Below, in pieces: positions 22,476 to 42,851 of a DNA stretch of 64,000 bases. The number at the start of each line of letters is the position of its first letter. Positions within the stretch are counted from its first letter, which is position 1. The notes under the pieces were generated by a model. It saw nothing but the letters and a program-made list of their open reading frames with translations. It was not told the origin of the DNA and did no database searches. This DNA comes from an uncultured Gemmatimonadota bacterium (GTDB taxonomy: Bacteria; SM23-81; DAOVCL01). Location: assembly GCA_964626665.1 (NCBI GenBank), contig CAZVGK010000001.1:1-64000 (forward strand), in the 5' to 3' direction. Both the position numbers and the translations under genes were made by a program.

Positions 22476-22637
22476 TCACCACTGATAACCACAGACTGAC
22501 AAAGAATTGGTTAATGATCAATTAGCAATTAACAATTATCAATGGGAAATGGCACACACCTCAGGATTTTCTGGCTTTATTTCATTTTAACTTGCTAATT
22601 GTTAATTGACCATTGATGATTGCCATTCCGTGGTGAA
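22476..22637. repeat. inverted heptamer-repeat element inside the operon
   Basis: ttcaccac...gtggtgaa ends enclose caattagcaattaacaatt and its inverted ttgctaattgttaattg. Confidence 0.6.
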
Positions 22638-22653
22638 TTCTTACATTTAAGCT

Positions 22654-24266: not shown

Positions 24267-24267
24267 A

Positions 24268-26106: not shown

Positions 26107-26267
26107 AATACAGTTTACAGAGATTAGTTTTCAGGGATCAGGGAAAAACTACGGCCATGCCATCAGGGCTTCTGCCCTGACGGAAGAGGAAGTCTTATTG
26201 TGGATGGTAACATCCACAAAGAGTGAGGGGATAGTTCGCCCCGCTGTACGCCATGCCGTGTCATAAT

Positions 26268-26870
26268 ATGAAATACAATTCAGAGAAGCACCATAGAAGG
26301 TCGATAAGATTAAAAGGTTACGATTATTCACAACGGGGATATTATTTTGTAAACATTTGTACAAAGAATCGGGAGTTGTATTTTGAAAGAGATGATGTAA
26401 AACGGATGATTAGAAATATCTGGTGTGATTTGCCCAATAGATTTCCAAATATTGAATTAGATGAATTCATAATTATGCCCAATCATATTCATGGAATAAT
26501 TGTTGTAGGGGTAACCCTTGTGGTTGCCCGAGCTAATCAAACCCAAAGGGCAGGCACGAGGCCTGCCCCTACGAAAACGGTTGCATTAGGTGATATTGTT
26601 GGTGCATTCAAATCATTAATAACAAATGGATATATTAACGGGGTTAAAAACAAAAATTGGAAACGATTTGATGGAAGATTGTTGCAACGTAATTATTATG
26701 AACATATTATCCGCAACGGCAAGTCATTAAATAGAATTCGGGAATATATAATCAACAATCCATTGAGATGGGATACTGACATTGAAAATCCGGACAATTG
26801 GAGGAATAATTTACAGAAATCAGCTATTGGAAAGTATTATCAAAATTTATTTGCGGAAGATACAGGATAG
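26268..26870 (+). mobile_element. REP-associated tyrosine transposase (RAYT, Y1/HUH family)
   Basis: RRSIRLKGYDYS, MPNHIH (HUH), QRNYYEHIIR and YIINNP motifs. AT-rich. Confidence 0.92.
26505..26572. repeat. GTAG-type REP doublet embedded in the RAYT coding sequence
   Basis: GTAG-gggtaacc..ggttgccc ... gggcaggc..gcctgccc-CTAC. Confidence 0.85.
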
Positions 26871-26998
26871 TCGCAAGAGCCTCTTCTTATGGGAACAGAT
26901 AAAATTCAGCTTTTCCTATTTACAGCAAAGGCTTCTTTTATGCCGGAACCGTTAAAATATCCTGTTATATTAAGAGTGAGCCTTATTAGGAGTTTGTT

Positions 26999-27430
26999 AT
27001 GACCAGAAGGAAATTTGATGCATCCATTCCCAGAAAAATGTTCTGGTCTAATAAAATTACAAACAGCAAACTATGTCCCAACTGTAATGCAAAATTAAAA
27101 AGGGAATACCATACTTATTTAGTAGGCACACGGAAGAGGAATAATTATGAGACTTTTATTACTGGAAATGATGACGGTTACTTTTGCCCCAATTGCGATA
27201 TAGTGGTTTTGGATTGGGATGAGTTTGCACGACTGGTGTCGGTATTCAGTAAATTTTCAAACTCAGTTGAATTCGCAGTTTTAGGAATAGTAGATACGAA
27301 TGCCATTCCCAAAGATAAAAAAAGTATTCCACTGGGGAATGATGATAATCCAATTCCTTTAGTCCGGTTTACAAATCTTTCTGAGAGAAGAAAATCGGGA
27401 AAAACGCAGAGAAGAAAAAATAGAAAATGA
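26999..27430 (+). CDS. hypothetical protein with two CxxC motifs (putative zinc-binding)
   Basis: CPNC and GYFCPNC motifs, AGGAG SD, AT-rich. Confidence 0.7.
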   Translation: MTRRKFDASIPRKMFWSNKITNSKLCPNCNAKLKREYHTYLVGTRKRNNYETFITGNDDGYFCPNCDIVVLDWDEFARLVSVFSKFSNSVEFAVLGIVDTNAIPKDKKSIPLGNDDNPIPLVRFTNLSERRKSGKTQRRKNRK

Positions 27431-27438
27431 GCAGATAC

Positions 27439-27526
27439 TTCGTATATCATGGCATATCTGGTTCGGACTTACGTTATCAACTGAACTACCTTTCGGGTAG
27501 CTTCGTATAGCCCGAAACCGTTAAGC
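27439..27526 (+). mobile_element. possible degenerate attC-like site
   Basis: acttcgtata(t)c...cttcgtatagcccgaaaccGTTAAGC. A similar right end, tatgccggaaccGTTAAAA, lies upstream of the gene at ~26939-26957. Confidence 0.4.
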
Positions 27527-27589
27527 AAACTTGATAGAAGTTTTAGAATAGATTGGGTTAGGTGTTTTAACCTTAATGGGAGGTTGTAA

Positions 27590-28153
27590 TTGGCTTTATT
27601 CATTGTTCTTCTTGTATTTATGATTATCGGCTCCATCATTGCAATTGAGACCAGGAACCTGCTCTCCGCAGTGATATCTGTGGGAGTTGTGGGCTTTGCC
27701 CTAAGCATCGCTTTCCTCCTCCTGAAGGCTCCGGATCTGGCCATTACCCAGGTGGTGGTAGAAGTAATCGCCCTCATCCTCTTAATCAGGGGAACCATCT
27801 CCTTGGATAACACGGCTATAGAGAAGCATAGGGACACATTTGCTCTGGTTTCTTCCCTGGTCTTCTTCGGCATCTTCCTGGCCTTTGGCTGGGCGGCCCT
27901 CCAGCATCTGCCTAAGTTTGGTGAACCCTTGATGAAGGTCTCCCAGGACTATCTGCAGACGGGTCTCCAGAAGACCGGGGCAGCCAACATAGTTATGTCC
28001 ATAGTCCTTGATTTCCGGGGTTATGACACACTGGGAGAGGCCACCGTGCTCTTCACCTCCATCTTAGGGGCCTTTGTGGTTTTGAGGAAGAGGGGGAGGA
28101 AGAAGAAGGAGGAAAAGGATACCGCCAGGGTGGGGATACCTGGTGATCTTTAA
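27590..28153 (+). CDS. MbhD/MbhE-like fusion (DUF4040 + MnhB N-terminal part)
   Basis: APDLAITQ and DFRGYDTLGE motifs. Confidence 0.88.
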   Translation: MALFIVLLVFMIIGSIIAIETRNLLSAVISVGVVGFALSIAFLLLKAPDLAITQVVVEVIALILLIRGTISLDNTAIEKHRDTFALVSSLVFFGIFLAFGWAALQHLPKFGEPLMKVSQDYLQTGLQKTGAANIVMSIVLDFRGYDTLGEATVLFTSILGAFVVLRKRGRKKKEEKDTARVGIPGDL

Positions 28154-28166
28154 GGGGGGGAAGGAT

Positions 28167-28637
28167 ATGCAAGGGATGACCCTGATAGTGAAAACCGTAG
28201 TGCGCATCGTCAGCGCCTTTATCGTGCTTTATGGGATCTACATCATCCTTTATGGTCACCTTACACCCGGTGGAGGCTTCCCCGGGGGGGTAATCATAGC
28301 CGCTGCCTTTATCCTCATTATGCTGGCCTATGGGAAGGAGGTGGCCTTAAAGAGGTTTGGCGATAGGTCCGCCTCCCTGTTGGATAACTTAGGGGCCTTG
28401 GGCTTTCTCTCCATTGCCCTTTTGGGGATAACCGGAGGTTATTTCTTCCTCAACTTCATCAATCATGGTCAGCCCTTCAGGCTGATCAGTGCGGGCACTA
28501 TACCCCTCTCTAACATCGCCATTGGGATAAAGGTCTCGGTCTGCCTCTATGCTGTGTTTATAGCGTTGGCCATATTTGGCCGGGCGGTTTATCGGGCGAG
28601 GGGAGGAAAGGATTTAAAGGGAGGTGGGGAGAGATGA
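28167..28637 (+). CDS. mnhB: MnhB/MbhF-like subunit
   Basis: YGHLTPGGGFPGG motif. Confidence 0.9.
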   Translation: MQGMTLIVKTVVRIVSAFIVLYGIYIILYGHLTPGGGFPGGVIIAAAFILIMLAYGKEVALKRFGDRSASLLDNLGALGFLSIALLGITGGYFFLNFINHGQPFRLISAGTIPLSNIAIGIKVSVCLYAVFIALAIFGRAVYRARGGKDLKGGGER

Positions 28638-28984
28638 TTGTTTATTTTCTTGCCCTTGTCCTCTTTGTGCTAGGTCTTTACTGCCTTGTGGCCAAAAAGA
28701 ACATCGTCAAGAAGGTAATTGGTATGGCGATTATGGACTATGCGGTGAACCTCTTCCTTGTCTTAGTGGGCTATAGGAGGGGAGGGGTAGCTCCCATCCT
28801 CCTTAAAGGGATGGATAGGGCCAAGTTCGTTACGCAAAGCGTAGATCCTCTTCCCCAGGCCCTTGTCTTAACCTCCATAGTCATTGGCTTAGGGGTGTTA
28901 GCCCTGATGGTTGCCCTCTGTATCAGGCTATACGAGAAGTATAAGACCTTCGATATGAGTGAGATAAGGAGATTGCGGGGATGA
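28634..28984 (+). CDS. mnhC: MnhC/MbhG-like subunit
   Basis: DPLPQALVLTSIVIG motif. Confidence 0.93.
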   Translation: MIVYFLALVLFVLGLYCLVAKKNIVKKVIGMAIMDYAVNLFLVLVGYRRGGVAPILLKGMDRAKFVTQSVDPLPQALVLTSIVIGLGVLALMVALCIRLYEKYKTFDMSEIRRLRG

Positions 28985-28999
28985 TAATTTCAAGGAGTT

Positions 29000-30478
29000 G
29001 TGATGCATAGCCTTCTGCCGCTTTTTATTGCCATCCCTCTGGGCGCCGCCTTTTTGGGCCTGATCATCGCCAAACTCTGGAGAGGGGCAGGAGGTCTCTT
29101 TGCCTTTTTGGGCACTCTCTCCCTGATGGTCTTCTCCTTCTGCCTATTGGGCCAACCCCCATTCATCTACAAGATGGGGGGGTGGATCCCCCCGGTGGGG
29201 ATCAACTTGGTCTCCGATGGGTTGAGTGGCTTTATGCTCGTGGTGATCAATACCGTGGCCTTTTTGGCCATAGTCTTCTCCCTGAAGTATATGGAGCTCT
29301 ACACGGCCAAGCCCAAGTACTATGCCCTCTTTATGCTTATGCTGGCCGGGATGAACGGCGTCGCCCTTACTGGGGACATGTTCAACCTTTTCGTGTTCCT
29401 GGAGATAGCCTCCATCTCCTCTTATGCCTTGGTGGCCTTTGGCTGTGAGCACGAGGAATTGGAGGCTTCCTTTAAATACCTCATCTTAGGTGGGGCCGCC
29501 TCTACCTTTATCCTCTTAGGGGTGGCTATCCTCTATAGTTTGACCGGCACCCTGAATATGGCCGATATGGCCCAGGTATTCTCCTCGGGAAAGGTAAACA
29601 GTGCAGCCCTCTTTGCCCTGGCCTTTTTTACTATGGGCTTTGGGGTAAAGGGGGCGCTGGTTCCCTTTCATGCCTGGCTTCCCGATGCCCATCCCTCCGC
29701 CCCTGCCCCCATTTCAGCTATGCTCTCTGGAGTTCTGATCAAGGTCTTGGGGATCTATGCCCTGACCAGGATTATCTTTAATGTCTTTGGCTTTACCCCA
29801 ACTATCGGGGCCATACTGATGGCCCTGGGTGGGCTCTCTATGGTTGTGGGAGCCCTTTTGGCCATTGGCCAGGATGACTTAAAGAGGCTCTTGGCCTATT
29901 CCACCATTAGCCAGATTGGCTATATAGTTTTGGGGTTGGGACTGGGCACCCCATTGGGGATATTAGGGGGGCTTTTTCACCTCCTCAACCATGCCACCTT
30001 TAAGTCCCTCCTCTTTATGTCCTCAGGGGCCATTGAGTATTCTACGGGAACAAGGAAGTTAAGCCAGATGGGAGGGCTGAACAAGAGGCTGCCGTTGACC
30101 ACTGCCGTCTCCACTACGGGCTTTCTCTCCGTCAGCGGTATCCCCCCCTTCAATGGCTTTTTCAGCAAGCTGATTGTCATTATCGCCTGTGTGCAGGCTC
30201 ACCAATACATATATGCGGGGGTGGCTGTCTTCGTGGGCCTCTTTACCCTCCTCTATTTTATGAAAGTGCAGAGGCACCTTCTCTTTGGAGATCTGCCAGA
30301 ACGGCTCAAAGGGATCAAGGAGGTTCCATTCTTAATGGGTTTTTCGCTGGTGGTTTTGGCCCTTCTCTGTTTAGGGTTAAGCTTTCTCTATCCGTTGATG
30401 TCCAAGACCATCCTGGCCTCGGCACGGGATGCCCTTTTGCACACCTCGGCTTACATTAAACTTAGCTTAGGGGGTTAA
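29000..30478 (+). CDS. mnhD: MnhD/MbhH-like subunit
   Basis: GGWIPPVGI, DMFNLFVFLEI, HAWLPDAH and KRLLAYS motifs. Confidence 0.93.
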   Translation: MMHSLLPLFIAIPLGAAFLGLIIAKLWRGAGGLFAFLGTLSLMVFSFCLLGQPPFIYKMGGWIPPVGINLVSDGLSGFMLVVINTVAFLAIVFSLKYMELYTAKPKYYALFMLMLAGMNGVALTGDMFNLFVFLEIASISSYALVAFGCEHEELEASFKYLILGGAASTFILLGVAILYSLTGTLNMADMAQVFSSGKVNSAALFALAFFTMGFGVKGALVPFHAWLPDAHPSAPAPISAMLSGVLIKVLGIYALTRIIFNVFGFTPTIGAILMALGGLSMVVGALLAIGQDDLKRLLAYSTISQIGYIVLGLGLGTPLGILGGLFHLLNHATFKSLLFMSSGAIEYSTGTRKLSQMGGLNKRLPLTTAVSTTGFLSVSGIPPFNGFFSKLIVIIACVQAHQYIYAGVAVFVGLFTLLYFMKVQRHLLFGDLPERLKGIKEVPFLMGFSLVVLALLCLGLSFLYPLMSKTILASARDALLHTSAYIKLSLGG

Positions 30479-30969
30479 TGGCAAGGAAGATAATAATATT
30501 TCTGGTCAGCTTTGCTACCTGGCTCCTGCTAACCTGGTCCCTTGACCCAGAGGAGTTGATTGCCGGGGCCGCCGTAGGGGTTTTGGTCGGTGTCCTCTTC
30601 TGGGATATCTTCCTCCAAGAGGGGAAAAGAACGGTTTTTGCCCCCAGGAGGTTTCTCTGGCTTGGCCTCTACATCCCAGTGTTTCTTTACTATATGATCA
30701 AGGCAAATTTAGATGTAGCTTACCGAGTCCTTCATCCGGAGATGCCCATAAACCCAGGGATAGTAAGGGTGAAGACCTCCCTGAAGACGGAGACAGGAAA
30801 GACCTTCCTGGCCAACTCCATAACCCTTACCCCGGGGACCCTTACCGTGGATATAGTTGACGATAACCTCTATGTCCATTGGATAAACATTTCTACCCTC
30901 GATCAAGAGGAGCAAACTAAGATAATCGTGACCAGGTTTGAAAAATTCTTAAGGAGGATATGCGAATGA
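30478..30969 (+). CDS. mnhE: MnhE/MbhA-like subunit
   Basis: ANLDVAYRV and LANSITLTPGT motifs. Confidence 0.93.
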   Translation: MARKIIIFLVSFATWLLLTWSLDPEELIAGAAVGVLVGVLFWDIFLQEGKRTVFAPRRFLWLGLYIPVFLYYMIKANLDVAYRVLHPEMPINPGIVRVKTSLKTETGKTFLANSITLTPGTLTVDIVDDNLYVHWINISTLDQEEQTKIIVTRFEKFLRRICE

Positions 30970-31220
30970 TCTGGCTTATCTGGGCATTGGTCTTCTCTTG
31001 CTTTCTCTGTCTCTATCGGGTAGGGGCGGGGCCTACACCCCCAGATAGGACGGTAGCCATTGATATATTAGGTACCCTGGTGGTGGGTGTCTGTGCTGTC
31101 TGGGCGGTGATCACGGGAAAGGATTTTTATATCAACATAGCTATTGCCTGGGCCCTTTTGAGCTTCATCGGCACCATCACCCTGGCTAAATATTTAGAGG
31201 GGAGAGGACTCGATGAGTGA
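30966..31220 (+). CDS. mnhF: MnhF/MbhB-like subunit
   Basis: GPTPPDRTVAID motif. Confidence 0.9.
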   Translation: MIWLIWALVFSCFLCLYRVGAGPTPPDRTVAIDILGTLVVGVCAVWAVITGKDFYINIAIAWALLSFIGTITLAKYLEGRGLDE

Positions 31221-31572
31221 GCCATTGGCAATCGTCCTCTTTGTCGTCGGAGGTCTCTTTGACCTCTTCGGCTGCATTGGGCTGGTCAGGCTGCCGGATA
31301 TCTATAATCGGCTGCAGGCAGCCACCAAATGTGTAACCTTGGGAACCTGTTTTATCCTTTTGGGGGTTTTCTTTTGGTCTGGCTTCTCGGCTATGGGGAT
31401 AAAGGCCCTGATTTGTGCTATATTTATCCTGATTACCTCCCCCACCGGAGCCCATGCCCTGGCCCGAGGGGCCCACATATCCGGGGTGAAACTCTGGGAG
31501 AAGAGCGTGATGGATAGGTATGCTGAGGATAAGGAAGGAAAGTTAGCCGGAGGAAAAGGTGAGAAAGCCTAA
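31213..31572 (+). CDS. mnhG: MnhG/MbhC-like subunit
   Basis: RLPDIYNRLQAATK and PTGAHAL motifs. Confidence 0.92.
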   Translation: MSEPLAIVLFVVGGLFDLFGCIGLVRLPDIYNRLQAATKCVTLGTCFILLGVFFWSGFSAMGIKALICAIFILITSPTGAHALARGAHISGVKLWEKSVMDRYAEDKEGKLAGGKGEKA

Positions 31573-32164
31573 GCTCAGGGAGCTAAAGGAGGCGGTGCGG
31601 GCCTTTGTTAAGGGCCCCTATACCACCAAATTTCCCAAAGTTCCGTCCATACCTCCGGAGAGATTTCGGGGGAAGCCGAAATATGATGAGGATGGTTGTG
31701 TGGGCTGTGGGGCCTGTGCCCAGGTCTGCCCTTCAGCAGCCATCGAGCTAATTGATGAAAGAGGAAAAGGTGTAACAGGAACAAGGGAATTGGTCCTCCA
31801 TTACGATAGGTGTATATTCTGTGGGCAATGTGAGGCCAACTGTATCACCGAGAAGGGGATTAAGCTCTCCCTGGAATATGACCTGGCCACCTATGACCGT
31901 AAGGAGACGGTGGAGTCAGTGGAGAAGGAGCTTCTCTTCTGCGAGTTCTGTGGCGCCCCCATTACCACTGTAGATCACCTTAAGTGGCTGGCCAAGAAGC
32001 TTGGCCCCCTGGCCTTCTCCAACCAGACTTTGATCTTGGTTTCCCATAAGGAGTTGGCCCTGGTGGACAAGACAGCCCCCCGGGACAAGAGGACGGACTA
32101 TATGAGGATTCTCTGTCCCCAGTGCAGGAGAGAGGTTATCTTTACAGAGGAGTGGGGGGCATAA
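31559..32164 (+). CDS. NuoI/MbhN/HycF-like 2x[4Fe-4S] subunit with extra C-terminal CxxC pair
   Basis: CVGCGACAQVCP, CIFCGQCEANC, CEFCG and CPQC motifs. Confidence 0.92.
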   Translation: MRKPKLRELKEAVRAFVKGPYTTKFPKVPSIPPERFRGKPKYDEDGCVGCGACAQVCPSAAIELIDERGKGVTGTRELVLHYDRCIFCGQCEANCITEKGIKLSLEYDLATYDRKETVESVEKELLFCEFCGAPITTVDHLKWLAKKLGPLAFSNQTLILVSHKELALVDKTAPRDKRTDYMRILCPQCRREVIFTEEWGA

Positions 32165-32253: not shown

Positions 32254-32281
32254 TTGACATATTATCTTTCCCATATAGATT
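32254..32281 (+). promoter_or_regulatory. putative promoter of the CsoR-family gene
   Basis: TTGACA-N16-TAGATT in an AT-rich stretch. Confidence 0.45.
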
Positions 32282-32334
32282 TAAAGTTTTGAGAAGTTCA
32301 GACCCTTAAAATCTCTTTGAGAGATTAACTCAGT

Positions 32335-32607
32335 ATGCCCGTCAGTGCAGAGACAAAGGCAGACCTCTCCAGCAGGTTGGAAAAGGCCAGAGGGCAGCTT
32401 TCTGGCCTGCAACGGATGATTGAAAATGGTGAGGACTGCACGCAAATTCTCACCCAGATCAGTGCTGTGCGGGCCGCTATTGGTAAAGTAGGGATAATAA
32501 TCGTGCAGAATTATATGAAGGACTGTTTGGATATCTCAGAGGAGAGGGAGATCACAGAGGTGAGGGTGGAAAACCTTGTGGGTATCTTATCCAGGTTGAT
32601 CAGATGA
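32335..32607 (+). CDS. CsoR/RcnR/CstR-family repressor lacking the metal-binding His
   Basis: RL..ARGQL.GLQRMIE..EDC..IL.QISAVRAA and QNYMKDC motifs. Confidence 0.92.
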   Translation: MPVSAETKADLSSRLEKARGQLSGLQRMIENGEDCTQILTQISAVRAAIGKVGIIIVQNYMKDCLDISEEREITEVRVENLVGILSRLIR

Positions 32608-32648
32608 AGGGGAATCCCAATTGGTATATTTTTTTTAATCTTTTGCTA

Positions 32649-32667
32649 TACCCTACACCGTAGGGTA
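32649..32667. promoter_or_regulatory. CsoR/CstR-type operator
   Basis: Palindrome TACCCTAC-ACC-GTAGGGTA, 17 nt upstream of the first mbs-like gene. Confidence 0.8.
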
Positions 32668-32684
32668 AAGGAAAGTATACCCAT

Positions 32685-33206
32685 ATGCGGTCGGGAACTT
32701 ACATTTTTAAAGATAAGCTGAAATGCTTTCTCTACCTGTTCGTTCTGTCTGTTCTGGTATGGCTGGCTCTCACCTCCACCTTTCAGTGGGAGGAGTTGAC
32801 CACAGGGGTGGTGATCAGCTTTTTCCTTTCCCTCCTGTTGAGTGGGCGGTATCTTGATTTGGGGTTACCTCCATTGAGCTTGAAGAGAATTATTCTTGCC
32901 CTGTGGTATATCTTTGTCCTTTTTTGGGAGATAATAAAGGCTAACCTTGATGTAGCCTATAGGGTTATCCATCCTAAGATGCCCATCAGGCCAGGTATCG
33001 TGGTGATCCGCACCGGGCTTAAATCAGATATCGCTAAGCTGGTCCTGGCCAACTCTATCACCTTAACCCCAGGGACATTTACCCTGGATATCCAGGGTGA
33101 GAACCTTCTTATCCACTGGATAAATGTCCAGGCCGAGGATATGGAAGGGGCAACGAGAATTATTGGGGAAAAGTTTGAAAAATACCTGAGGGTGATCTTT
33201 AAATGA
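32685..33206 (+). CDS. mbsA: MbsA/MbxA (MnhE-like)
   Basis: LANSITLTPGT motif; first gene of the cluster. Confidence 0.88.
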   Translation: MRSGTYIFKDKLKCFLYLFVLSVLVWLALTSTFQWEELTTGVVISFFLSLLLSGRYLDLGLPPLSLKRIILALWYIFVLFWEIIKANLDVAYRVIHPKMPIRPGIVVIRTGLKSDIAKLVLANSITLTPGTFTLDIQGENLLIHWINVQAEDMEGATRIIGEKFEKYLRVIFK

Positions 33207-33454
33207 GCATAACTATTTTCTTGGTGATAATAGGTTTGGGTGTTATTCTCTGTCTGCTCCGGATGTTGCAGGGCCCAACGGCACCTGATCGGGCGGTGGC
33301 CGTGGACACCTCGGCTACAGTAACCACTGCCCTGCTGGTTCTTCTGGGTTTTTTCTTCAAGAGATATGTCTACCTGGATGTCTCCTTGGTCTATGCGGTC
33401 TTAACCTTCATAGGGACTGTGGCCATTGCCAGATATTTAGAGAGGGGGATATAG
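33203..33454 (+). CDS. mbsB: MbsB/MbxB (MnhF-like)
   Basis: GPTAPDRAVAVD motif. Confidence 0.88.
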   Translation: MSITIFLVIIGLGVILCLLRMLQGPTAPDRAVAVDTSATVTTALLVLLGFFFKRYVYLDVSLVYAVLTFIGTVAIARYLERGI

Positions 33455-33461
33455 CCCCTTA

Positions 33462-33512
33462 GCTGGCTTCATAAGGCAACTTCTTAAAATTGAGGTATGG
33501 TTTGCAGCCAGC
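33462..33512 (-). repeat. ~50-bp GCTGGCT mini element, inverted copy
   Basis: Reverse complement matches 4020-4074 and 42803-42849. Confidence 0.7.
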
Positions 33513-33620
33513 AATTGCAAATTGCAGATTGTAAATTGAAAATAGCAAAATGAAAACCAAAATGTGGGGTTAACAGGTTGGAAGCAATAATGATTTTTAC
33601 TTTTACACTTTGCAATTTTC

Positions 33621-33822
33621 GTAACCGTTTAGCCATTTGAATAGCTTCATTGAAACTAAAACAAAGACGCTCTATTCTGTCATTTCGAGCGTAAGCGAGA
33701 AATCTGGTGACATAAAGGGCTAAGATGAATTTAGATTCCTCCCTTCGGTCGGAATGACAATCCTGGATTTCTCTGCACTCAATCGACTATTATCACCTTT
33801 CTTCACATAGCTAAACAGTTAC
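33621..33822. mobile_element. 202-bp MITE with 13-bp TIRs and 8-bp target-site duplication
   Basis: GTAACCGTTTAGC...GCTAAACAGTTAC, flanked by CAATTTTC on both sides (33613-33620 and 33823-33830). Confidence 0.85.
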
Positions 33823-33881
33823 CAATTTTCAATCTGAAATTCGCAGCTTCGCTGGTTTAGATCTCAAGGAAGAGGTTTGAG

Positions 33882-34217
33882 ATGGGAGTTGTAGGTCAGA
33901 TAGTCACGGGGATTGGCGTTATTTTCCTCTTTTTAGGGAGCTTGGGGGTGTTCAGGCTGCCTGATGTTTACAACCGGCTGCAGGCAGGAACGAAGTGCAC
34001 CACCTTAGGGGCATTCCTCACCATCATTGGGGTAGGGATGATGGAACCGGCCTGGTTTGTGAAGACACTGCTCATCGGTCTGTTCATTCTGGCCACCAAT
34101 CCCATCTCCAGCCATGCCTTGGGGAGGGCAAGCTGCAAGAGCGGAGTTCCCCTCTGTGAGAAAAGCGTAGTGAACAAGAGCAAGGACCTATGCAAGAAGG
34201 GGGAGGAGGCGGAATGA
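33882..34217 (+). CDS. mbsC: MbsC/MbxC (MnhG-like)
   Basis: RLPDVYNRLQAGTK motif. Confidence 0.88.
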   Translation: MGVVGQIVTGIGVIFLFLGSLGVFRLPDVYNRLQAGTKCTTLGAFLTIIGVGMMEPAWFVKTLLIGLFILATNPISSHALGRASCKSGVPLCEKSVVNKSKDLCKKGEEAE

Positions 34218-34450
34218 TCTTCCAGGCATTTTTAATATTCATAATGCTTATCGGGGCCATCGCCGCGGCCCTCTTCCGGGATTTAATGAACTCCGTCATC
34301 GCCTGTGCTCTGGTCAGTTTGATTGCCGCCATTCTCTTCTATTTCCTCCAGGCCCCTGATGTGGCTATGGCCGAGGCATCCATTGGAGCTGGGTTAACTA
34401 CCGCTATTTTCGTCATTGCCATCAGGAGGACGAGGAGACATGAGGAATGA
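34214..34450 (+). CDS. mbsD: MbsD/MbxD (DUF4040)
   Basis: QAPDVAMAEASIGAG motif. ATG overlaps the upstream stop. Confidence 0.88.
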   Translation: MIFQAFLIFIMLIGAIAAALFRDLMNSVIACALVSLIAAILFYFLQAPDVAMAEASIGAGLTTAIFVIAIRRTRRHEE

Positions 34451-34565
34451 AGGCAGCCGAGGGTTAGTGTTCTGGCTACATTAAGTAGTCCATAGATTAC
34501 TATTTTACGAAAACGTGTCAGAATGCCCAGTCCTGTGAACGGGAATGAGTGACATCCTTATAGTT

Positions 34566-34658
34566 CCCTCTCCCCTGGGGGAGAGGGTTAGGGTGAGGGG
34601 GGGATCGGAGGTAATTCTCACCCTCTCCTTAGTCCTCCCCCATCAAGGGGGAGGAGAG
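34566..34658. repeat. CCCTCTCCC/CCCTCACC palindromic repeat family (also ~15610-15665, 51360-51380, 63495-63580)
   Basis: ccctctcccctgggggagaggg hairpin. ctccttagtcctcccccatcaag matches the reverse complement near 63495-63530. Confidence 0.7.
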
Positions 34659-34754
34659 TGTTTTAGCTGAGCGGTCAGATCCCCTGATCTGCATTACGGC
34701 ATATTCTCAAAAGCCCAGAAAAGGTTAGTCCGGTTAAAGCCGGGTAGAATAAGG

Positions 34755-34848
34755 CTACTTCGTCACCTTGCTTCCCGCAATGACATATCTTTGCCTGTCA
34801 TTGCGAGGCTTGCCCTGAGCGGCAGCAAGGGGCAAGCCGAAGCAATCT
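34755..34848. repeat. GTCATTGCGAG REP-like pair
   Basis: cgcaatgac...gtcattgcgaggcttg...gaagcaatc. Confidence 0.8.
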
Positions 34849-34894
34849 TTAACCTCTGCTGCACTGTAAATCTTGTGTTTAACGCATTAAAGAT

Positions 34895-35584
34895 ATGAGA
34901 AAGTTAATTAGCTTAATCTTGCTTTTGGTTGTGGCCTTAGGGGTGGGCTTCTCCCTTTCCCAGGTGCCTTTTGGCCAGGAAAAGACTAAGGTGGGCAAAT
35001 ACTATGTAGCCAAAGGGGTCAGGGAAACAGGAGCAACAAATATCGTTACCTCAGTGGTCCTTAACTATCGAGGTTTTGATACCCTGGGTGAAGTCACGGT
35101 TCTCTTCATTGCTGCTCTGGGCCTGGGGGCCGTGCTCTATCGTCGCGGCAAGAGGAAAACCAGAAAGGGTTTAGAGCCGGCAAGCCTAATTCTCTCTACA
35201 GGGTGCCGTTTCCTCTTCCCCTTAATTCTCCTTTTTGGGGGTTACATCTTCATTCATGGTCATCTCACCCCTGGTGGGGGTTTCCAGGGAGGGGCGATCA
35301 TCGCCTCCGCTTACCTCTTGATTTATTTGGGTTGTCGGGGGGGGAGGATAAACAAAAGAGCCTTTAACGCTATAGAATCCTTAGGCGGTTTGACCTTTGT
35401 GGTGATTGGATTGCTTGGGCTGGTAGTTGGCGGCTATTTCCTCCTGAACTTTTTCCCCCTGGGGAGGGCAAATTTCCTCTTCAGCGCAGGCATAATTCCC
35501 ATTATCTATGTGGCTATTGGGTTTAAAGTTGGTTCGGAGCTGGCCGGAATTGTGGACAACCTGATGGAGGAAACAGGTGATTGA
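34895..35584 (+). CDS. mbsE: MbsE/MbxF (fused MnhB-type subunit)
   Basis: NYRGFDTLGE and HGHLTPGGGFQGG in one polypeptide. Confidence 0.88.
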   Translation: MRKLISLILLLVVALGVGFSLSQVPFGQEKTKVGKYYVAKGVRETGATNIVTSVVLNYRGFDTLGEVTVLFIAALGLGAVLYRRGKRKTRKGLEPASLILSTGCRFLFPLILLFGGYIFIHGHLTPGGGFQGGAIIASAYLLIYLGCRGGRINKRAFNAIESLGGLTFVVIGLLGLVVGGYFLLNFFPLGRANFLFSAGIIPIIYVAIGFKVGSELAGIVDNLMEETGD

Positions 35585-35632
35585 AGAAGGGAGCGCCAAT
35601 AGTCTTCTGGCTAAGGGTTTTTAGCTGAAGAG

Positions 35633-35998
35633 GTGGAGATGGGTTTTCTCTCTAAAAGCATCTATTACATAGCATCTTTCGGGTTGATATTCATCGGTCT
35701 ATACATCGTTATGGTGAAGAAGAACCTGATCAAGGTGATCATCGGATTGAGCATCATAGACACCGGGGTGAACCTTTTTCTCATCACCATTGGCTATATC
35801 TGGCGAGGAACTGCCCCCATTTATTCCCGGCCAGGTTTATCAGCGAAGTCTATGGTTGACCCTGTCCCCCAGGCTCTGGTTCTTACCGCCATTGTCATTG
35901 GTGTCTCCGTTTTGGCTTTAGCACTTTCCTTAGCCATAAAATTATATCACCATTACGGAACGCTTAACCTACGGAAAATAAAGGAGTTGAGATGGTGA
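35633..35998 (+). CDS. mbsG: MbsG/MbxG (MnhC-like)
   Basis: DPVPQALVLTAIVIG motif. Confidence 0.9.
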   Translation: MEMGFLSKSIYYIASFGLIFIGLYIVMVKKNLIKVIIGLSIIDTGVNLFLITIGYIWRGTAPIYSRPGLSAKSMVDPVPQALVLTAIVIGVSVLALALSLAIKLYHHYGTLNLRKIKELRW

Positions 35999-36059
35999 AG
36001 GGGTTAAACCACAAATTTCTCCAGAATATTTGGGCCCTTTCTCCGGCGAGGTATAAGGA

Positions 36060-37550
36060 ATGTTGAGTCCGGTGCTTTTAATTGCTGTCCCTTTGGGTCT
36101 TGCCTTCCTTTTACCCCTTTTGGGGCTTGGCTCTGAGAAGATTGGGAAATACATCCCTATTGTGGGAACGGGTTTCAATCTGGTCATCGGTCTCCTGCTT
36201 CTCCCCAAAGCCTTAAACCATCCCATCGTTGTCTCCCTTGGGGGTTGGCATCCTCCCCTTTGTATCAATTTGGTGGCCGGCCCCTTAGGAGTTCTGCTCT
36301 CCCTGCTTATCTCCTTGGTGGGCTTGCTGGTGGCCATCTATGCCCTTGGTTACATCAAAGAAGGTGCCCAGGAAAGGTATCATACCCTTTATCTTTTGCT
36401 TCTCACCGGGGCTACAGGTGTTGTCCTCACCGGGGATATATTCAACCTCTTCGTCTTCTTTGAGATCCTCTGTATCTCCTCCTATGCCCTGGTAGCTTAT
36501 TGGGGAAATAAGCCAGGGGTTGAAGCGGCAACAAAGTATCTCATCCAGGGTTCCCTTGGGGCTTCCTTTATCCTTATCGGCATTGGTTTGCTCTACGGCC
36601 TTTTTGGGACGCTTAATATGGCAGATATTGCCAATAGTATAACCAACCAGGCAGCGGTGATCAATCAGCACCCGATGATCTTGTTTGTCTCTTTGGCATT
36701 TTTGATAACCGGATTTGGGGTGGAGGCGGCCATTTTTCCATTAAATGCCTGGTTGCCTGATGCTCACTCATCAGCTCCCTCCTCGATCAGTGCCATCCTC
36801 TCCGGGTTGGCTATCAAGGCAGGTATCTATGCAGTGGCCAGAGTTGTCTTTACCATCTTTGGCGCTCAAAATATCCTCAGCTTGATTGCCGTGATTGGCC
36901 TGCTGACCCTCCTTGTGGGGGAGATGTCTGCCTTTAAACAGAGGAATATCAAACGGCTTTTGGCCTATTCCAGCGTGGGGCAAGTAGGTTTGATAGTATT
37001 TGCCCTGGGGATAGCCTCACCGCATGGGGTTGCTGGTGGTCTGTTTCAGATTGTTAGCCATGCCCTAGCCAAATCTATGCTCTTTTTGGGTGTGGGATAT
37101 ATGATCTATCGCACCGGTTCTATGGAGATCTCCTCTATGGAGGGTATGGGAAAGAGGATGCCCTTGACCTCTCTCTCCTTTACCATTGGGGCCTTTTCCC
37201 TTGTTGGCCTACCTCCCTTTATTGGCTTTTCCAGCAAACTCTCCATTGTGCGGGCCGCCCTGGAAAAGGGAGAGGTCTTCTTTGTCGTCCTGGTCATATT
37301 TGCTCTGTTGGGCACGGTAATAGAGGGGGCTTATTTCTTTAGGGTGGTGCAGGCCCTCTACTTCAAGGGGGAGAGGAGCCAGCTAAAGAGGGAGGAGGCT
37401 CCCGTATCCGCCTTGATTCCCATAGTTCTCCTTGCTGGCTTGATTGTGGGGATTGGGGTATACCCACATTTGGTGAGTAATCTCTTTGGGGCAGCAGCAG
37501 GGGAGCTGGTGAACAGGATGGCCTATATCAGGGGTGTATTAGGGGGATAG
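36060..37550 (+). CDS. mbsH: MbsH/MbxH (MnhD-like)
   Basis: DIFNLFVFFEI, WLPDAH and KRLLAYSS motifs. Confidence 0.9.
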   Translation: MLSPVLLIAVPLGLAFLLPLLGLGSEKIGKYIPIVGTGFNLVIGLLLLPKALNHPIVVSLGGWHPPLCINLVAGPLGVLLSLLISLVGLLVAIYALGYIKEGAQERYHTLYLLLLTGATGVVLTGDIFNLFVFFEILCISSYALVAYWGNKPGVEAATKYLIQGSLGASFILIGIGLLYGLFGTLNMADIANSITNQAAVINQHPMILFVSLAFLITGFGVEAAIFPLNAWLPDAHSSAPSSISAILSGLAIKAGIYAVARVVFTIFGAQNILSLIAVIGLLTLLVGEMSAFKQRNIKRLLAYSSVGQVGLIVFALGIASPHGVAGGLFQIVSHALAKSMLFLGVGYMIYRTGSMEISSMEGMGKRMPLTSLSFTIGAFSLVGLPPFIGFSSKLSIVRAALEKGEVFFVVLVIFALLGTVIEGAYFFRVVQALYFKGERSQLKREEAPVSALIPIVLLAGLIVGIGVYPHLVSNLFGAAAGELVNRMAYIRGVLGG

Positions 37551-37591
37551 GGGTAGTTTTCCGCCAATATAAGGTAAATGGGAAAAATTTT

Positions 37592-39439
37592 ATGTCCATA
37601 GGTGTAATACTAATAATTGCTTTTGGGGGAGCGTTTTTCACCTATCTTTTGGGCAAGATCTCCTCTACTCTGAGGAACCTTTTTGCCGTTCTGATTTCCC
37701 TTCTGCTTGTTGGTTTGATCTCTCTTGCCTATGGCAGGTTAGGGTGGAGGGTCGGCTACGAATTCCTTGGTTTTAACCTTGTTTTGAGATTAACTGTCCT
37801 CTCCTGGTTTTTTGCTATTTCGATAGCTGGCATTGGGTTTCTCTCCATAGTCTTTTCACTGAGCTATATGAAGGGGAGGGAAAACCTCGATTTCTATTAT
37901 CTGATGATGCTCCTGGTTAATGCCGGAATGTTAGGGGTTGTCTTCAGCGGTGATCTGCTTTCCTTTTATATCTTCTGGGAAATTATGAGTTGGGGAACAT
38001 ATCTGTTGATCAGCTCCGGGCGAGGTAAGGCCTTGGATGCGGGTCTGAAATATATCATCTGGTCAATTATCGGTTCCAGCCTTATGATGCTTGGCTTTCT
38101 CTACCTATATGTTAGCTATGGGACATTAAGTTTCCCCGGTCTCTCCCTCCGGCTTAGCTCTGCCCCATCCGGGGTTCTCCTTCTTACCCTCATCCTCTTC
38201 GGCATTGGGTTTGGCATCAAGAATGCCCTTCTTCCCCTCCATACCTGGTTGCCAGATGTTTACACCGAGGCTCCTTCCCCGTTTACCGCTGTTCTCTCCG
38301 GGATGCTCACGCGCATGGGGGTTTACGGTTTCCTTCTGGTGATGTATGTGCTGGTAGGGTTGAGGGAGGTAGTTCACCTCGGCTCTGGTTGGTTTACCTT
38401 CAACAATGTCCTCTCCTGGCTGGGCGCTATCACCATAGTTATCCCCACCTTTATTGCCCTGCTGCAGAATGATGCCAAGAGGCTCTTGGCCTGGAGTAGC
38501 GTAGGCCAGGGAGGGTATATGATCTTGGGGATAGCCTTCGGGACGAGTATGGGGGTGGCGGGAGGGATACTGCACACCTTGGGATATGCACTGAGCGTGG
38601 TGCTACTCTTTATGGTGGTGGGGGCGGTGGAACATCGCACCCAGGGGATAAGAGACTTAAACCAATTGGGTGGGTTAATAAAGAAGATGCCCCTTACATT
38701 CATCGGGGCTTTGATCGGTATCTCTGGGTTGATTGGGGTTCCCTTGGTTTGTCCCTTTGTTTCCAAGTGGTTGATCTATAAAACATTAATTGATCAAGGG
38801 CATCCAATTTTGGCCTTTGCCGCTTTAATCGGAACCTGGGGAGCCATACTTTATGCCTATAAATTCATTCACAACATTTTCTTGGGGCAAACGCCTAAGA
38901 GGCTAGAGAATGTAAAGGTGGCCCCTTTTAGCATGCAATTTCCTATGGCCGTTCTCTCGGTGATCATTGTCCTCTTCGGTATCCTTCCAGGTATTCCGCT
39001 TAAGGTTATTGGGAACATTGAGAGCTCCTTTGGCTTTGCCCCTCTTGCCCTAAATGTATGGGGGATAAGATCCGAAGTGGCCATCCTAAATACATTAAAC
39101 ATCTTTGCGGCAGTATTATTGGCGGTCTTCTTCATTTTCCTCCTCTTTCGCATGGGAGCCGGATCGCGGAGGGTTCCCCAGGAGGATAGTTACACCGCGG
39201 GAGCAGCGCCAGTTCCTGCAGATAGGTATCATCATACGGTCGATTTCTATAACCCATTCCAGAGAATAATTTCACCCTATCTGCGGGATAGGATTGACGA
39301 TCTTTACTACTGGATTGCTGGGGGCGCAAGGGGGATCTGTGACGGAATCAGACGCATCTATACAGGGGATGTGGGGACCTATGCTCTCTACATCGTCCTT
39401 TTTCTGGCGTTTCTCATTCTAATGCAGAGGTTTGGCTAG
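37592..39439 (+). CDS. MbsH'/MbxH' (second antiporter-like subunit, MrpA/NuoL-like)
   Basis: FWEIMSW, HTWLPD, KRLLAWSS and C-terminal YTGD..Y motifs. Confidence 0.88.
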   Translation: MSIGVILIIAFGGAFFTYLLGKISSTLRNLFAVLISLLLVGLISLAYGRLGWRVGYEFLGFNLVLRLTVLSWFFAISIAGIGFLSIVFSLSYMKGRENLDFYYLMMLLVNAGMLGVVFSGDLLSFYIFWEIMSWGTYLLISSGRGKALDAGLKYIIWSIIGSSLMMLGFLYLYVSYGTLSFPGLSLRLSSAPSGVLLLTLILFGIGFGIKNALLPLHTWLPDVYTEAPSPFTAVLSGMLTRMGVYGFLLVMYVLVGLREVVHLGSGWFTFNNVLSWLGAITIVIPTFIALLQNDAKRLLAWSSVGQGGYMILGIAFGTSMGVAGGILHTLGYALSVVLLFMVVGAVEHRTQGIRDLNQLGGLIKKMPLTFIGALIGISGLIGVPLVCPFVSKWLIYKTLIDQGHPILAFAALIGTWGAILYAYKFIHNIFLGQTPKRLENVKVAPFSMQFPMAVLSVIIVLFGILPGIPLKVIGNIESSFGFAPLALNVWGIRSEVAILNTLNIFAAVLLAVFFIFLLFRMGAGSRRVPQEDSYTAGAAPVPADRYHHTVDFYNPFQRIISPYLRDRIDDLYYWIAGGARGICDGIRRIYTGDVGTYALYIVLFLAFLILMQRFG

Positions 39440-39617
39440 CTCCTCGTTGGTCATAGCGAGCCGTCAGAACCCCGATTCTGACGGCAAGGGGGGAAAGTGG
39501 CAGGGAAGCCGGGTAGAAACCGCAGATTCACGCAGATTCTACTCCGTCAGGGCAGGAGCCCTGACGGCACAAGCTCTATAATTCAGACCAGGCGAGTTGC
39601 CGTTGGAAGGGTGTGAT

Positions 39618-40505
39618 ATGGTAAGAACTGTTGCTGAACTTATTGGCTCTCCCCTTATTGCCTTTGTGGTCGGGGTTTTCTTCCTGGGCTTGGCCAGGAA
39701 GGTTACCGCGCGTATTCAGCGAAGATATGGTCCTCCCCTCTACCAGCCGGTCATCGATGTGGTGAAGCTCCTCTATCAGAAGAGCGTCTCCCATGGTTTG
39801 ATGTTTGATTTTGGGGTCCTCCTCTCTTTGGGGGGGGCGATAGTGACCATTCTCTTCATTCCGGTGGGGAGGATATGTCCGCTGAATATGTCCGGAGGGA
39901 TGCTGGTAATTATCTATCTTATGCTCCTTTCCCCTCTGGGAACTGCCCTCAGTGCGGGGGAAGCGGCGAACCCCAACGCCAGCATTGGCATCTCCCGGAA
40001 GATGTTGCTTGCCTTGGGATATGAAGTCCCCTTCCTGCTAATTATACTTTCGGTTATGACCCATTATGGGACTACCTCCATCACAGAGATTGTCCACCTA
40101 CAGCAGATAGGGCATTGGGGGATAGTTTCTCTGCCCCTTCCTGGTATAGCGGCCCTTTTGATCCTACCTCCGATGTTGGGGATAAGGCCCTTTGATATGG
40201 TCGACGCCCCGCAGGAGATAGCATCTGGCCCACTGGCCGAATATGGGGGGAAGTATCTGGCCCTCATCTCCATCGAGCATGCCATGCACATCTTCTTAGT
40301 CATTGCTCTCTTCGTTGATCTCTTCTTGGGCGGTTCCGGTAATCTCCTCATTTTCCTGGTGGAGGTGACAGTCATCTTTTTGCTGGGCCTTTTAGTTAGT
40401 GTTGTATTCCCCCGCTTCCGGATTGAGCAGGCGCTGAGGTATTGCTGGAAGTGGCCTACAATTCTGGCTTTTATTGGCTTGATAATAGTGATGATATGGA
40501 GGTAG
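39618..40505 (+). CDS. mbsM: MbsM/MbxM (NuoH-like)
   Basis: RKVTARIQRRYGPP, PFD..APQEIASG and PRFRIEQA motifs. Confidence 0.9.
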   Translation: MVRTVAELIGSPLIAFVVGVFFLGLARKVTARIQRRYGPPLYQPVIDVVKLLYQKSVSHGLMFDFGVLLSLGGAIVTILFIPVGRICPLNMSGGMLVIIYLMLLSPLGTALSAGEAANPNASIGISRKMLLALGYEVPFLLIILSVMTHYGTTSITEIVHLQQIGHWGIVSLPLPGIAALLILPPMLGIRPFDMVDAPQEIASGPLAEYGGKYLALISIEHAMHIFLVIALFVDLFLGGSGNLLIFLVEVTVIFLLGLLVSVVFPRFRIEQALRYCWKWPTILAFIGLIIVMIWR

Positions 40506-40539
40506 TTGGTGGGCTTTATTCTCTTAAAAGGAGATAGAA

Positions 40540-41064: not shown

Positions 41065-41105
41065 AACTTGTCTGGCTGAACAGTTGCGGCTAAAAGGGGA
41101 ATGAT

Positions 41106-41609: not shown

Positions 41610-41625
41610 TCCTTTTGATGAAGGA

Positions 41626-42849: not shown

Positions 42850-42851
42850 TA

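Follow-up and report, generated by a model that had tools for sequence, protein, structure and literature searches.

The 64,000-nucleotide (nt) stretch analysed here, called the window below, comprises positions 1 to 64,000 of contig CAZVGK010000001.1 (assembly GCA_964626665.1) from an uncultured Gemmatimonadota bacterium. It contains a small regulator gene of the CsoR/RcnR family and a palindrome, which together stand at the head of a 13-gene operon for an MBS/Mbx-type membrane complex (MBS denotes membrane-bound sulfane reductase). The regulator is a candidate sulfur-responsive on-switch for this MBS-related membrane respiratory complex in an uncultured bacterium. In the reading that we prefer, a dithiol-switch repressor occludes the operon promoter and sulfane sulfur is the most likely modifier of its thiols; as a whole, this reading is given a probability of about 50%. 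Its parts differ in strength: a link between repressor, operator and operon is highly probable, a thiol switch at the cysteine pair is likely, and sulfane sulfur as the effector has slightly less than an even chance. The elements concerned are as follows.

32254-32281, plus strand: site that resembles a promoter for the regulator gene, TTGACA, 16 nt, TAGATT, with 10 of 12 consensus matches
32335-32607, plus strand: regulator gene, coding for a 90-amino-acid (aa) protein of the CsoR/RcnR family (PF02583) with P2-C35-Y60-C64 at sensor positions W-X-Y-Z
32621-32649, plus strand: putative operon promoter, -35 TTGGTA (32621-32626), 17-nt spacer, -10 TGCTAT (32644-32649)
32649-32667, strand not applicable: candidate operator, a perfect 19-bp palindrome TACCCTAC-ACC-GTAGGGTA overlapping the -10 region and the transcription start
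32685-44925, plus strand: MBS/Mbx-type operon of 13 genes, recognised with Pfam and NCBIfam

Translation of the plus-strand open reading frame (ORF) at 32335-32607 yields 90 aa. The initial annotation of this DNA had closed the feature at 32667, which is the end of the palindrome; the gene itself stops at 32607. The protein matches PF02583 (DUF156, 'metal-sensitive repressor') over residues 8-85 with 77.8 bits (Pfam cut-off 22.8, E = 8.6e-22). Its description as a CsoR-family member without the copper-ligand histidine was borne out by this profile match and by Tyr60 at position Y. Both cysteines are kept as described, in the motifs EDC (residues 33-35, C35) and MKDC (residues 61-64, C64), and Y60 lies four residues before C64. 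Matches to the NCBIfam models of FrmR (43.4 bits), RicR (43.6) and RcnR (33.2) remain far under cut-offs of 133-175 (133 for FrmR, 138 for RcnR), and the regulator is therefore no equivalog of a named family member. An AlphaFold2 model based on a 7-sequence alignment (mean pLDDT, the predicted local distance difference test, 78.9) predicts a three-helix protomer of about 90 aa with helices at residues 5-31, 35-65 and 75-89, in which C35 would stand at the start of helix 2. The Foldseek matches to the PDB listed at E ≤ 0.03 were CsoR/RcnR-family structures only (template-modelling scores about 0.56-0.72), in the order FrmR (5lcy), Geobacillus CsoR, Streptococcus pneumoniae CstR, InrS and Mycobacterium tuberculosis CsoR.

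Relatives of the regulator were collected in several ways. An HMMER search of 1.84 billion representatives returned 3195 relatives at E ≤ 0.001, the best full-length one 52% identical, and none at E ≤ 1e-30. A word-index protein search found three close homologues (P0002-P0004, 84-96% identical) on short contigs, and a scan of GTDB species genomes with the 7-sequence alignment gave 80 loci (L001-L080); a single-sequence scan of genome contigs produced 534 pattern matches with no relative among them. The sensor positions were read in 137 hits of at most 140 aa from the best 150 of the 3195 and were C-Y-C in 56 and C-H-C in 47. This indicates that a tyrosine at position Y marks a large group and is not an oddity. 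In a maximum-likelihood tree (207 rows, 93 columns, quick search, LG+G4; references annotated Staphylococcus aureus CsoR and Burkholderia FrmR), the window protein, P0002-P0004, P0007 and L001-L007 form one branch of 12 members with an SH-aLRT (approximate likelihood-ratio test) support of 97. The nearest rows outside this clade (P0010, P0040 and P0079) are likewise C-Y-C. Residues C35, Q58, N59, Y60 and C64 are invariant in all 12 members, and the residue before C35 is always D, S or P (Asp34 in the window protein). Pro2 occurs in only four of the 12, all within the window protein's own subgroup.

These residues bear directly on the effector. According to the published sequence similarity network (SSN) of the family, all Cu-sensing clusters keep a histidine as well as a tyrosine before the first cysteine, and the two residues cage this N-terminal cysteine; the motif x-C-x-C is common to three clusters that sense persulfides and other reactive sulfur species (RSS), and clusters 6-9 are described as uncharacterised (Fakhoury 2021, PMC8643695). 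The x-C-H-C of Cu(I) sensors is absent from the window clade, which has Tyr60 at Y in 12 of 12 members, and the tyrosine before the first cysteine (Y35 of M. tuberculosis CsoR) is Asp34 in the window protein. Instead of the H-C-H-H or H-C-H-C of RcnR and InrS it has V3 and Y60. The x-C-x-C of CstR without histidine at Y is present (C35, C64, Y60). By these criteria, with no histidine at Y and no tyrosine before C35, the protein does not qualify as a Cu sensor but has the motif of CstR. Sensing of Cu(I) or another thiophilic metal by Cys35 and Cys64, with Tyr60 or a carboxylate as third ligand, is accordingly very improbable, even though metal sensing prevails in the family, both cysteines correspond to residues by which CsoR binds Cu(I), the operator belongs with the type 2 sites of CsoR (PMC3902906), and a conserved Glu79 stands roughly where M. 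tuberculosis CsoR has its allosteric glutamate (judged by spacing only, 15 versus 16 residues after the second cysteine). The His3 of Ni/Co sensors is also missing (V3). Genomic context adds to this. Around 51 x-C-Y-C loci, 193 neighbour ORFs lie no more than two genes away, and 90 of them were scanned (repeated clostridial contexts and very short ORFs were dropped). In the window, the scan was made over ORFs of at least 70 aa and took in 17 proteins of the operon and its surroundings as well as 39 of the 49 ORFs outside 32300-46300. Neither the 90 scanned neighbours nor the scanned window ORFs yielded an HMA or P-type ATPase domain, copA or copZ.

The initial annotation had overlooked Pro2, which together with Cys35 makes up the deduced formaldehyde site of FrmR (PMC5016687). 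The protein starts with MPVS, and its alignment with Salmonella FrmR begins at the first residue of both and matches Pro2 to Pro2 and Cys35 to Cys35. FrmR-type sensing of an aldehyde or of formaldehyde, in which formaldehyde bridges the mature N-terminal Pro2 and the Cys35 of the neighbouring subunit and the operon is tied to one-carbon metabolism, would also agree with FrmR being the top fold match and sharing the first place in NCBIfam with RicR, and with genomic surroundings: the operons of the relatives lie near genes for FolD, a methylenetetrahydrofolate reductase (MTHFR) C-terminal domain protein and RACo, and clostridial homologues adjoin glyA. We nevertheless consider it quite improbable. 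Pro2 is confined to four of 12 clade members whereas Cys64 and Tyr60 are invariant, the P-C-H-x pattern of FrmR with its Pro5 is broken by Tyr60 in place of His60 and by Ala5, the FrmR model score lies far below its cut-off as given above, and neither frmA nor fghA was found among the scanned window ORFs.

The link between the regulator and its presumed target is conserved. When the 80 loci were searched with the operon proteins of the window, an Mbx-like operon was found next to the regulator in five of the seven nearest loci (L002, L003, L004, L006 and L007) and in none of the other 73. The regulators of these seven loci, from Aerophobetes metagenome-assembled genomes (MAGs) and 'uncultured Clostridia' MAGs, are 47-56% identical to the window protein. 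L003, L004 and L006 share the window layout, the MnhE-like gene coming after the regulator. The regulator of L002 and L007 runs convergently towards the operon's 3' end, and these two loci do not reach as far as the operon head. In L001 the contig breaks off 318 nt past the regulator gene, and in L005 sugar-isomerase-type genes, with no Mbx-like operon, adjoin the regulator. In all three relatives with the regulator at the operon head, a promoter of the form TTGACA, 16-17 nt, TAATAT is directly followed by a TACnnTA(C/G)-N3-GTAnnGTA site. The alignment of the loci gives these counterparts of the candidate operator.

L004, same place: TACCCTAC-AGT-GTATGGTA
L006, same place: TACTTTAC-AGC-GTAAGGTA
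L003, same place: TACTATAG-GGC-GTAGGGTA, degenerate, with three left-arm mismatches

The spacer is 3 nt in all four loci of the clade, including the window. The conservation of the operator upstream of orthologous operons, which the initial annotation had named as a check, was thus found in three of three relatives with the same layout, and the linkage of regulator, operator and operon is kept among the nearest loci.

In the window, the palindrome TACCCTAC-ACC-GTAGGGTA lies downstream of the regulator gene as first reported, beginning 42 nt past the stop codon. It is separated from the ATG of the MnhE-like gene (32685) by 17 nt (32668-32684), and TTGCTA (32643-32648) stands immediately 5' of it. 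The arms stretch to 15 nt with 87% complementarity (32642-32674). The putative operon promoter of the window aligns column for column with the TTGACA ... TGTAATAT promoters of the L003, L004 and L006 operons. TTGCTA was considered as a -35 element and rejected, since this alignment puts it in the -10 region, of which it is more likely a part, with TTGGTA as the -35 hexamer. The site covers the -10 region and the start point, which is the classic placement for promoter occlusion. No operator-like palindrome was found by pattern scans at the regulator's own promoter (32254-32281), so autoregulation is not indicated, and no plus-strand terminator-like site was found in the scan after the regulator gene.

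The initial annotation had called operators of this family TACCC...GGGTA-like. For CsoR of streptomycetes the consensus is ATATACCCCTNAGGGGTATAT, in which a TAC/GTA inverted repeat is indispensable to binding (PMC3902906), and the Streptococcus mitis cst operator used with CstR includes ATATACCCTTATGGGGTATAT (PMC8643695); the sites of Streptomyces lividans CsoR and S. mitis CstR are both of the form TACCC...GGGTA (PMC3902906, PMC8643695). The window site also fits the consensus of TTHA1953 from Thermus thermophilus, TACNNTAC-N4-GTANNGTA, with a spacer of 3 nt instead of 4. It is therefore of the TAC...GTA kind expected for the family, as claimed, but this kind of site cannot separate Cu sensors from RSS sensors; since their sites are alike, the operator indicates family membership and not the effector.

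The genes of the putative target operon are listed below with their start positions; all lie on the plus strand and were assigned with Pfam/NCBIfam, with further references where given.

32685: MnhE-like gene
33203: MnhF gene
33882: MnhG gene
34190: MbhD gene
34895: MbhE/MnhB gene
35633: NuoK-like gene
36060 and 37592: two MnhD-like genes
39597: NuoH gene
40540: NuoB/MbsJ-like gene (also 6u8y_J)
41106: NuoC gene
41560: NuoD/MbsL-like gene (also 6u8y_L)
43060: NuoI-GltD fusion gene, 621 aa (PRK13984, 701.7 bits, below the cut-off of 946)

The operon had been described as mbs-like, and with MbsL and MbsJ as the best solved-structure matches of its proteins it is a true MBS/Mbx orthologue. The top solved structure for the NuoD-like protein is Pyrococcus furiosus MbsL (6u8y_L) with 2e-106, ahead of complex I (1.1e-72) and MbhL (9.8e-40). 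The NuoB-like protein matches P. furiosus MbsJ (6u8y_J) with 7.7e-67, gapless over residues 15-172, and both share the motifs FCTGCG, GSCP and AGCMPRPEA. In MbsJ, it is reported to be the shortened length of the FCTGCG motif that gives the proximal [4Fe-4S] cluster only three cysteine ligands (C28, C93 and C123, with C25 nearby) and turns it into the polysulfide-reducing site (Yu et al. 2020, PMC7684303). A plain two-cluster MbsN taking electrons from ferredoxin is not present; the NuoI-GltD fusion, which is retained in L002 and L007, stands in its place. MbsN is unfused in archaeal MBS, whereas its equivalent in the window operon is joined to a GltD/SudA-like NAD(P)H flavoprotein domain.

Some details of the operon are recorded here in their own right. 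The TTG listed as start of the MbsL-like ORF (region 41560-41640) gives a 50-nt overlap with the NuoC-like gene, and the MbsL alignment begins only at residue 28, which suggests that the true start may be further downstream. Three gaps of about 320-445 nt (33454-33882, 34450-34895 and 42736-43059) contain GC-rich hairpins (34566-34587, 34634-34654 and the pair 42914-42935 and 42945-42966), which may be insertions resembling repetitive extragenic palindromic (REP) elements or internal regulatory sites; the MnhF/MnhG and MbhD/MbhE junctions of L004 measure only about 45-90 nt. A histidine kinase (HisKA and HATPase_c), in which no sensor domain was found, starts 8 nt past the stop codon of the fusion gene and overlaps a receiver-only response regulator (44933-46211); both are probably co-transcribed with the operon. 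A second, larger kinase at 46963 and an NtrC/FixJ-like receiver protein at 50410 lie further 3'. In L006, a short ORF with two CxxC pairs (zinc-ribbon-like, 7379-7480) lies between the operator and the MnhE-like gene. Another palindrome of L006, the perfect TACCAGAC-AGT-GTCTGGTA (3462-3480), was set aside as unrelated and not kept as a second regulon site because it lies 8 nt before a HEPN/nucleotidyltransferase pair and is probably that module's own site. In L007 (Aerophobus profundus, 3664-6752), the regulator has the 3' end of the Mbs-type operon on one side. On the other side are an Rrf2-family regulator, a pyridoxal phosphate (PLP)-dependent gene of cysteine-synthase type and a homocysteine-biosynthesis sulfur-incorporation gene, a weak additional link to sulfur metabolism.

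Directly upstream of the regulator-operon region, the window harbors a [NiFe] hydrogenase/Mrp cluster of the membrane-bound hydrogenase (MBH) type at 16819-32164. Its gene order is AsrA/ShyB-like, AsrB/ShyC-like, molybdopterin (Fdh/NuoG-like), DmsB-like, NuoH/B/C, large subunit, Mrp-type and NuoI/HycF-like ferredoxin. The large subunit is closest to P. furiosus MbhL (6cfw_L) and contains the NiFe motifs RICGICS and DPCYCC, and hypF, hypD and hypE lie further upstream on the minus strand (10726-15598). A rex gene at 16003-16638 is identified by the NCBIfam Rex subfamily model with 257.8 bits (cut-off 126). TTGTGAA-N4-TTCACAA, which we take to be the Rex box consensus, occurs twice without mismatch, at 15973-15990 in front of rex and at 16800-16817, with 2 nt left to the hydrogenase cluster's first gene. 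The cluster is interrupted at 26198-27430, between an MnhD/L-like gene (end 26106) and an MnhB-like gene (start 27590), by an ORF resembling a REP-associated tyrosine transposase (26253-26870; 63.3 bits, below the cut-off of 80) and a cysteine-rich ORF of 143 aa (26999-27430). A palindrome TTGTGGATGGTAACATCCACAA stands at 26198, with a near-copy differing in one base at 245. As genes for MBH, hyp and Rex are present, the organism looks like a strict anaerobe, and in such an organism sulfane sulfur would be the most plausible thiol oxidant.

From the observations on family, residues, operator position and synteny we infer DNA binding, repression, a thiol switch and its effector as follows. The regulator would act as a repressor of the CsoR/RcnR family, whose members are homotetramers, and would represent an x-C-Y-C clade that travels with MBS/Mbx-type operons. 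The reduced tetramer would bind the 19-bp palindrome over the -10 region and the start and keep RNA polymerase off. As no plus-strand terminator-like site was found behind the regulator gene, transcription that runs on from the promoter of this gene would likewise be stopped by the bound repressor. The thiols of Cys35 and Cys64', a pair between subunits, would then be modified covalently, which would lower the DNA affinity and turn on the 13-gene complex. The modifier would most likely be sulfane sulfur (persulfide or polysulfide), forming di-, tri- or tetrasulfide links by analogy with CstR. Together with the Rex-controlled MBH-type hydrogenase upstream, such a switch could route electrons to sulfur when it is available, as a bacterial analogue of the SurR switch.

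Sulfane sulfur is favoured for four reasons. Among the sensor residues, none but the two cysteines and the tyrosine between them is invariant; the target complex is orthologous to MBS and has its catalytic motif intact; the window carries the counterpart MBH cluster with hyp genes and Rex; and elemental sulfur (S0) induces related complexes in cultured bacteria, namely the MBS genes of bacterium 3DAC, whose MBH genes fall (PMC10356935), and mbxA of Thermotoga maritima, which is reported to rise 4.4-fold (PMC9431562). The earlier claim that a sulfur sensor directly controls the Mbs operon thus stands with respect to the conserved linkage with the operon, but the sulfane sulfur effector is unproven. 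For this reason the further claim of independent support for a sulfur function of Mbx is partly circular, and the S0 induction of bacterial MBS/Mbx was already published.

Several findings weigh against the reading of a sulfur-responsive repressor. The first of them concern the operator. With up to three mismatches allowed, at least one match to the palindrome occurs in 17 of 100 shuffled windows; the pattern TACCC-N(3-15)-GGGTA is expected 0.83 times per window and found at least once in 55 of 100 shuffles; and perfect palindromes with 8-nt arms and 0-6 nt spacers number 37 in the window versus 9.7 in first-order random sequence. Many of these 37 resemble REP-type hairpins. Taken alone, the palindrome is not beyond chance. 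The promoter hexamers of the window are a weak consensus match, and the consensus scan did not report them. The palindrome might be one of the many in this genome, or it might act in read-through transcripts as an RNA hairpin covering part of the ribosome-binding site; the region 32630-32700 folds at -17.3 kcal/mol with an extended stem pairing into AAAGGAAAG, and no plus-strand terminator-like site was found between regulator and operon. However, the z-score of this fold is only -1.16, with 26 of 200 shuffles folding as well, and the exact pattern occurs once in the window, unlike the REP-like hairpins, with no second site found when up to 2-3 mismatches were allowed. Its TAC/GTA ends are specific to the family and occur in palindromes at a background of only 0.10 per kb (956 kb of loci). 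In the relatives the place relative to the -10 region is kept, while the start codon may be as near as 17 nt or more than 100 nt away. What makes the palindrome convincing is where it lies and that the orthologous loci keep it there (L004, L006 and the degenerate L003), and a hairpin or a chance palindrome is thus a far-fetched explanation.

Other adverse points concern the likeness to CstR. The top solved-structure match by sequence is S. pneumoniae CstR (7mq1; 2.5e-10), ahead by only about 2 bits; the PDB scores of CstR, CsoR and FrmR are just 2-3 bits apart, and the fold search was unable to separate these three. The label 'CstR-like' in the initial annotation is therefore apt for the motif, but sequence (43.6 to 35 bits) and fold are about equidistant from CstR, CsoR, FrmR and InrS. 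The placement in a family tree that had been proposed gave the supported clade of 12 within x-C-Y-C sequences, but the nodes deeper than this clade were not resolved and give no support for a grouping with CstR (SSN clusters 3, 4 and 10). By context the label is not supported either, as other x-C-Y-C members adjoin aspS, tcdA, glyA, thrE, thioredoxin genes or an Fe-S/cytochrome b module, not genes of sulfur metabolism or detoxification. Rhodanese, persulfide dioxygenase, SQR and TauE were not found among the scanned window ORFs, and no CoAPR-type sulfide/sulfite detoxification genes were seen among these ORFs or the scanned x-C-Y-C neighbours. The literature search turned up no biochemical characterisation of any x-C-Y-C protein.

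Regarding the contexts themselves, the clostridial arrangement (e.g. L008, L010, L013, L017, L019, L020 and L022) consists of aspS, a ThiF-family gene, the regulator and either glyA, coding for serine hydroxymethyltransferase (SHMT), or a divergent ThrE exporter pair. A double-thioredoxin gene lies behind the regulator in Caldanaerobacter (L052) and in a Clostridia MAG (L057). In two deltaproteobacterial MAGs (L073, 6995-9134; L038, 14-2150), a multi-[4Fe-4S] protein of 339 aa and a membrane protein of the cytochrome b561 type follow the regulator within about 10-25 nt; the sensor positions are P-C-Y-C in L073, and the L038 copy is cut at the contig edge. Here another x-C-Y-C regulator heads a membrane redox module.

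The last group of adverse points concerns what the complex and its switch respond to. The vestigial NiFe cysteines C85 and C385 of MbsL are replaced by Asn and Ala in the NuoD-like protein; the C85A/C385A enzyme is, however, reported to be still active in P. furiosus (PMC7684303). The NuoI-GltD fusion, which the initial annotation had overlooked, is interpreted in Thermotoga-type mbx-like operons as a site of NAD(P)+ reduction, that is, as an NAD(P)-linked module of a ferredoxin:NAD(P)+ oxidoreductase (PMC4758237). TTHA1953 loses DNA binding through disulfide formation with Cu(II) or H2O2 and is reported as unresponsive to NaHS in vitro (PMC10318464). The one-carbon genes near the relatives' operons belong here as well. 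With the same architecture, Cys35-Cys64' could thus be a general thiol-redox or oxidant switch that forms a disulfide and tunes an ion-translocating ferredoxin:NAD(P)+ oxidoreductase. The behaviour of TTHA1953 argues for such a switch, as do the NAD(P)(H) link suggested by the fusion, the double-thioredoxin genes and the Fe-S/cytochrome b module next to x-C-Y-C relatives, and the Wood-Ljungdahl and one-carbon genes near the relatives' operons. We regard it as unlikely, although it is the most serious alternative to a sulfur switch, since the closest solved relatives of the target are MbsL and MbsJ, including the length of the catalytic-cluster motif, bacterial MBS/Mbx responds to S0 in the two cultured species cited above, and in an apparently strict anaerobe sulfane sulfur is the most plausible thiol oxidant.

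Neither the family nor the mechanism class is new here; what is new is a respiratory complex as the target, and the signature x-C-Y-C is an uncharacterised one. In the open-access literature, no paper was found that links CsoR or CstR with Mbx/MBS, and no regulator for bacterial Mbx/MBS complexes turned up. It may tentatively be proposed that the protein is the first regulator of a bacterial MBS/Mbx complex and belongs to a new x-C-Y-C sensor class, which reads sulfane sulfur via a Cys-Cys' switch tuned by the invariant tyrosine and, paired with Rex, decides between proton and sulfur reduction. If true, the SurR switch would have been reinvented in bacteria on an unrelated protein scaffold, and the regulator would be a genetic marker that Mbx complexes bearing NuoI-GltD act on sulfur. 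Arguments over the function of bacterial Mbx/MBS, sulfane reductase or ferredoxin:NAD(P)+ oxidoreductase, still draw on homology and on a handful of expression studies. With its conserved operator, a dedicated sensor offers a small protein that can be expressed and its inducer identified in vitro, and the identity of the inducer would tell the purpose of the complex. A respiratory switch would also add a fourth thiol-based context in the CsoR family beside detoxification (CstR), Sox (TTHA1953) and the actinomycete CstR, and it would open a first way into the function of the x-C-Y-C group, which is large and uncharacterised.

Among known systems, the CstR proteins of S. aureus, Enterococcus faecalis and S. 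pneumoniae (SSN clusters 4 and 10; PMC8643695) share with the window regulator the fold, the size and the x-C-x-C pair. Like it, they have no histidine at Y, no aromatic residue before the first cysteine and a TACCC...GGGTA-type operator over the promoter. They differ in sequence (about 31% identity in the Foldseek alignment, with an unsupported grouping in the tree) and at the 'wedge' position, which is an invariant tyrosine in the window clade and Asn in S. pneumoniae CstR. Their targets are rhodanese, persulfide dioxygenase, CoA-persulfide reductase and SQR, whereas the window regulator would control a respiratory MBS-type complex, and their hosts are Firmicute pathogens whereas the window lineage is uncultured and near Aerophobetes MAGs. 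TTHA1953 of T. thermophilus HB8, compared here by description, likewise has two cysteines (C39 and C68), the oxidation of which lowers DNA binding, and the protein controls a sulfur energy pathway by repressing Sox genes; the double TAC/GTA architecture recurs in its operator, which also lacks a long G/C tract (PMC10318464). However, it lies far from its regulon while the window regulator adjoins its target, and its target is the oxidative Sox pathway as opposed to a reductive MBS-type complex.

The CsoR proteins of M. tuberculosis, Bacillus subtilis, S. lividans and S. aureus have the family, the fold, the two cysteines and the type 2 TAC/GTA operator in common with the window protein (PMC3902906). 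In the window protein, the histidine at Y is replaced by Tyr and the tyrosine before the cysteine by Asp, so that the same four alignment columns read Y-C-H-C in the annotated S. aureus CsoR and D-C-Y-C here, and copA and copZ are missing from the neighbourhood. FrmR of Salmonella and Escherichia coli (PMC5016687) has Pro2 and Cys35 at identical positions and provides the top fold match (5lcy), but the window protein lacks His60 and Pro5, has a second cysteine at Z and has no formaldehyde-detoxification genes nearby.

A functional analogy extends to the archaeal SurR of Thermococcales. SurR operates as a redox switch based on thiols. It is the sulfur-responsive master regulator of mbh and mbs (PMC12162507, PMC12401011). 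The likeness would consist in a thiol switch that turns on an MBS operon with sulfur while an MBH cluster is under separate control. SurR belongs to an unrelated family and acts as activator and repressor, whereas the window protein would be a local repressor only.

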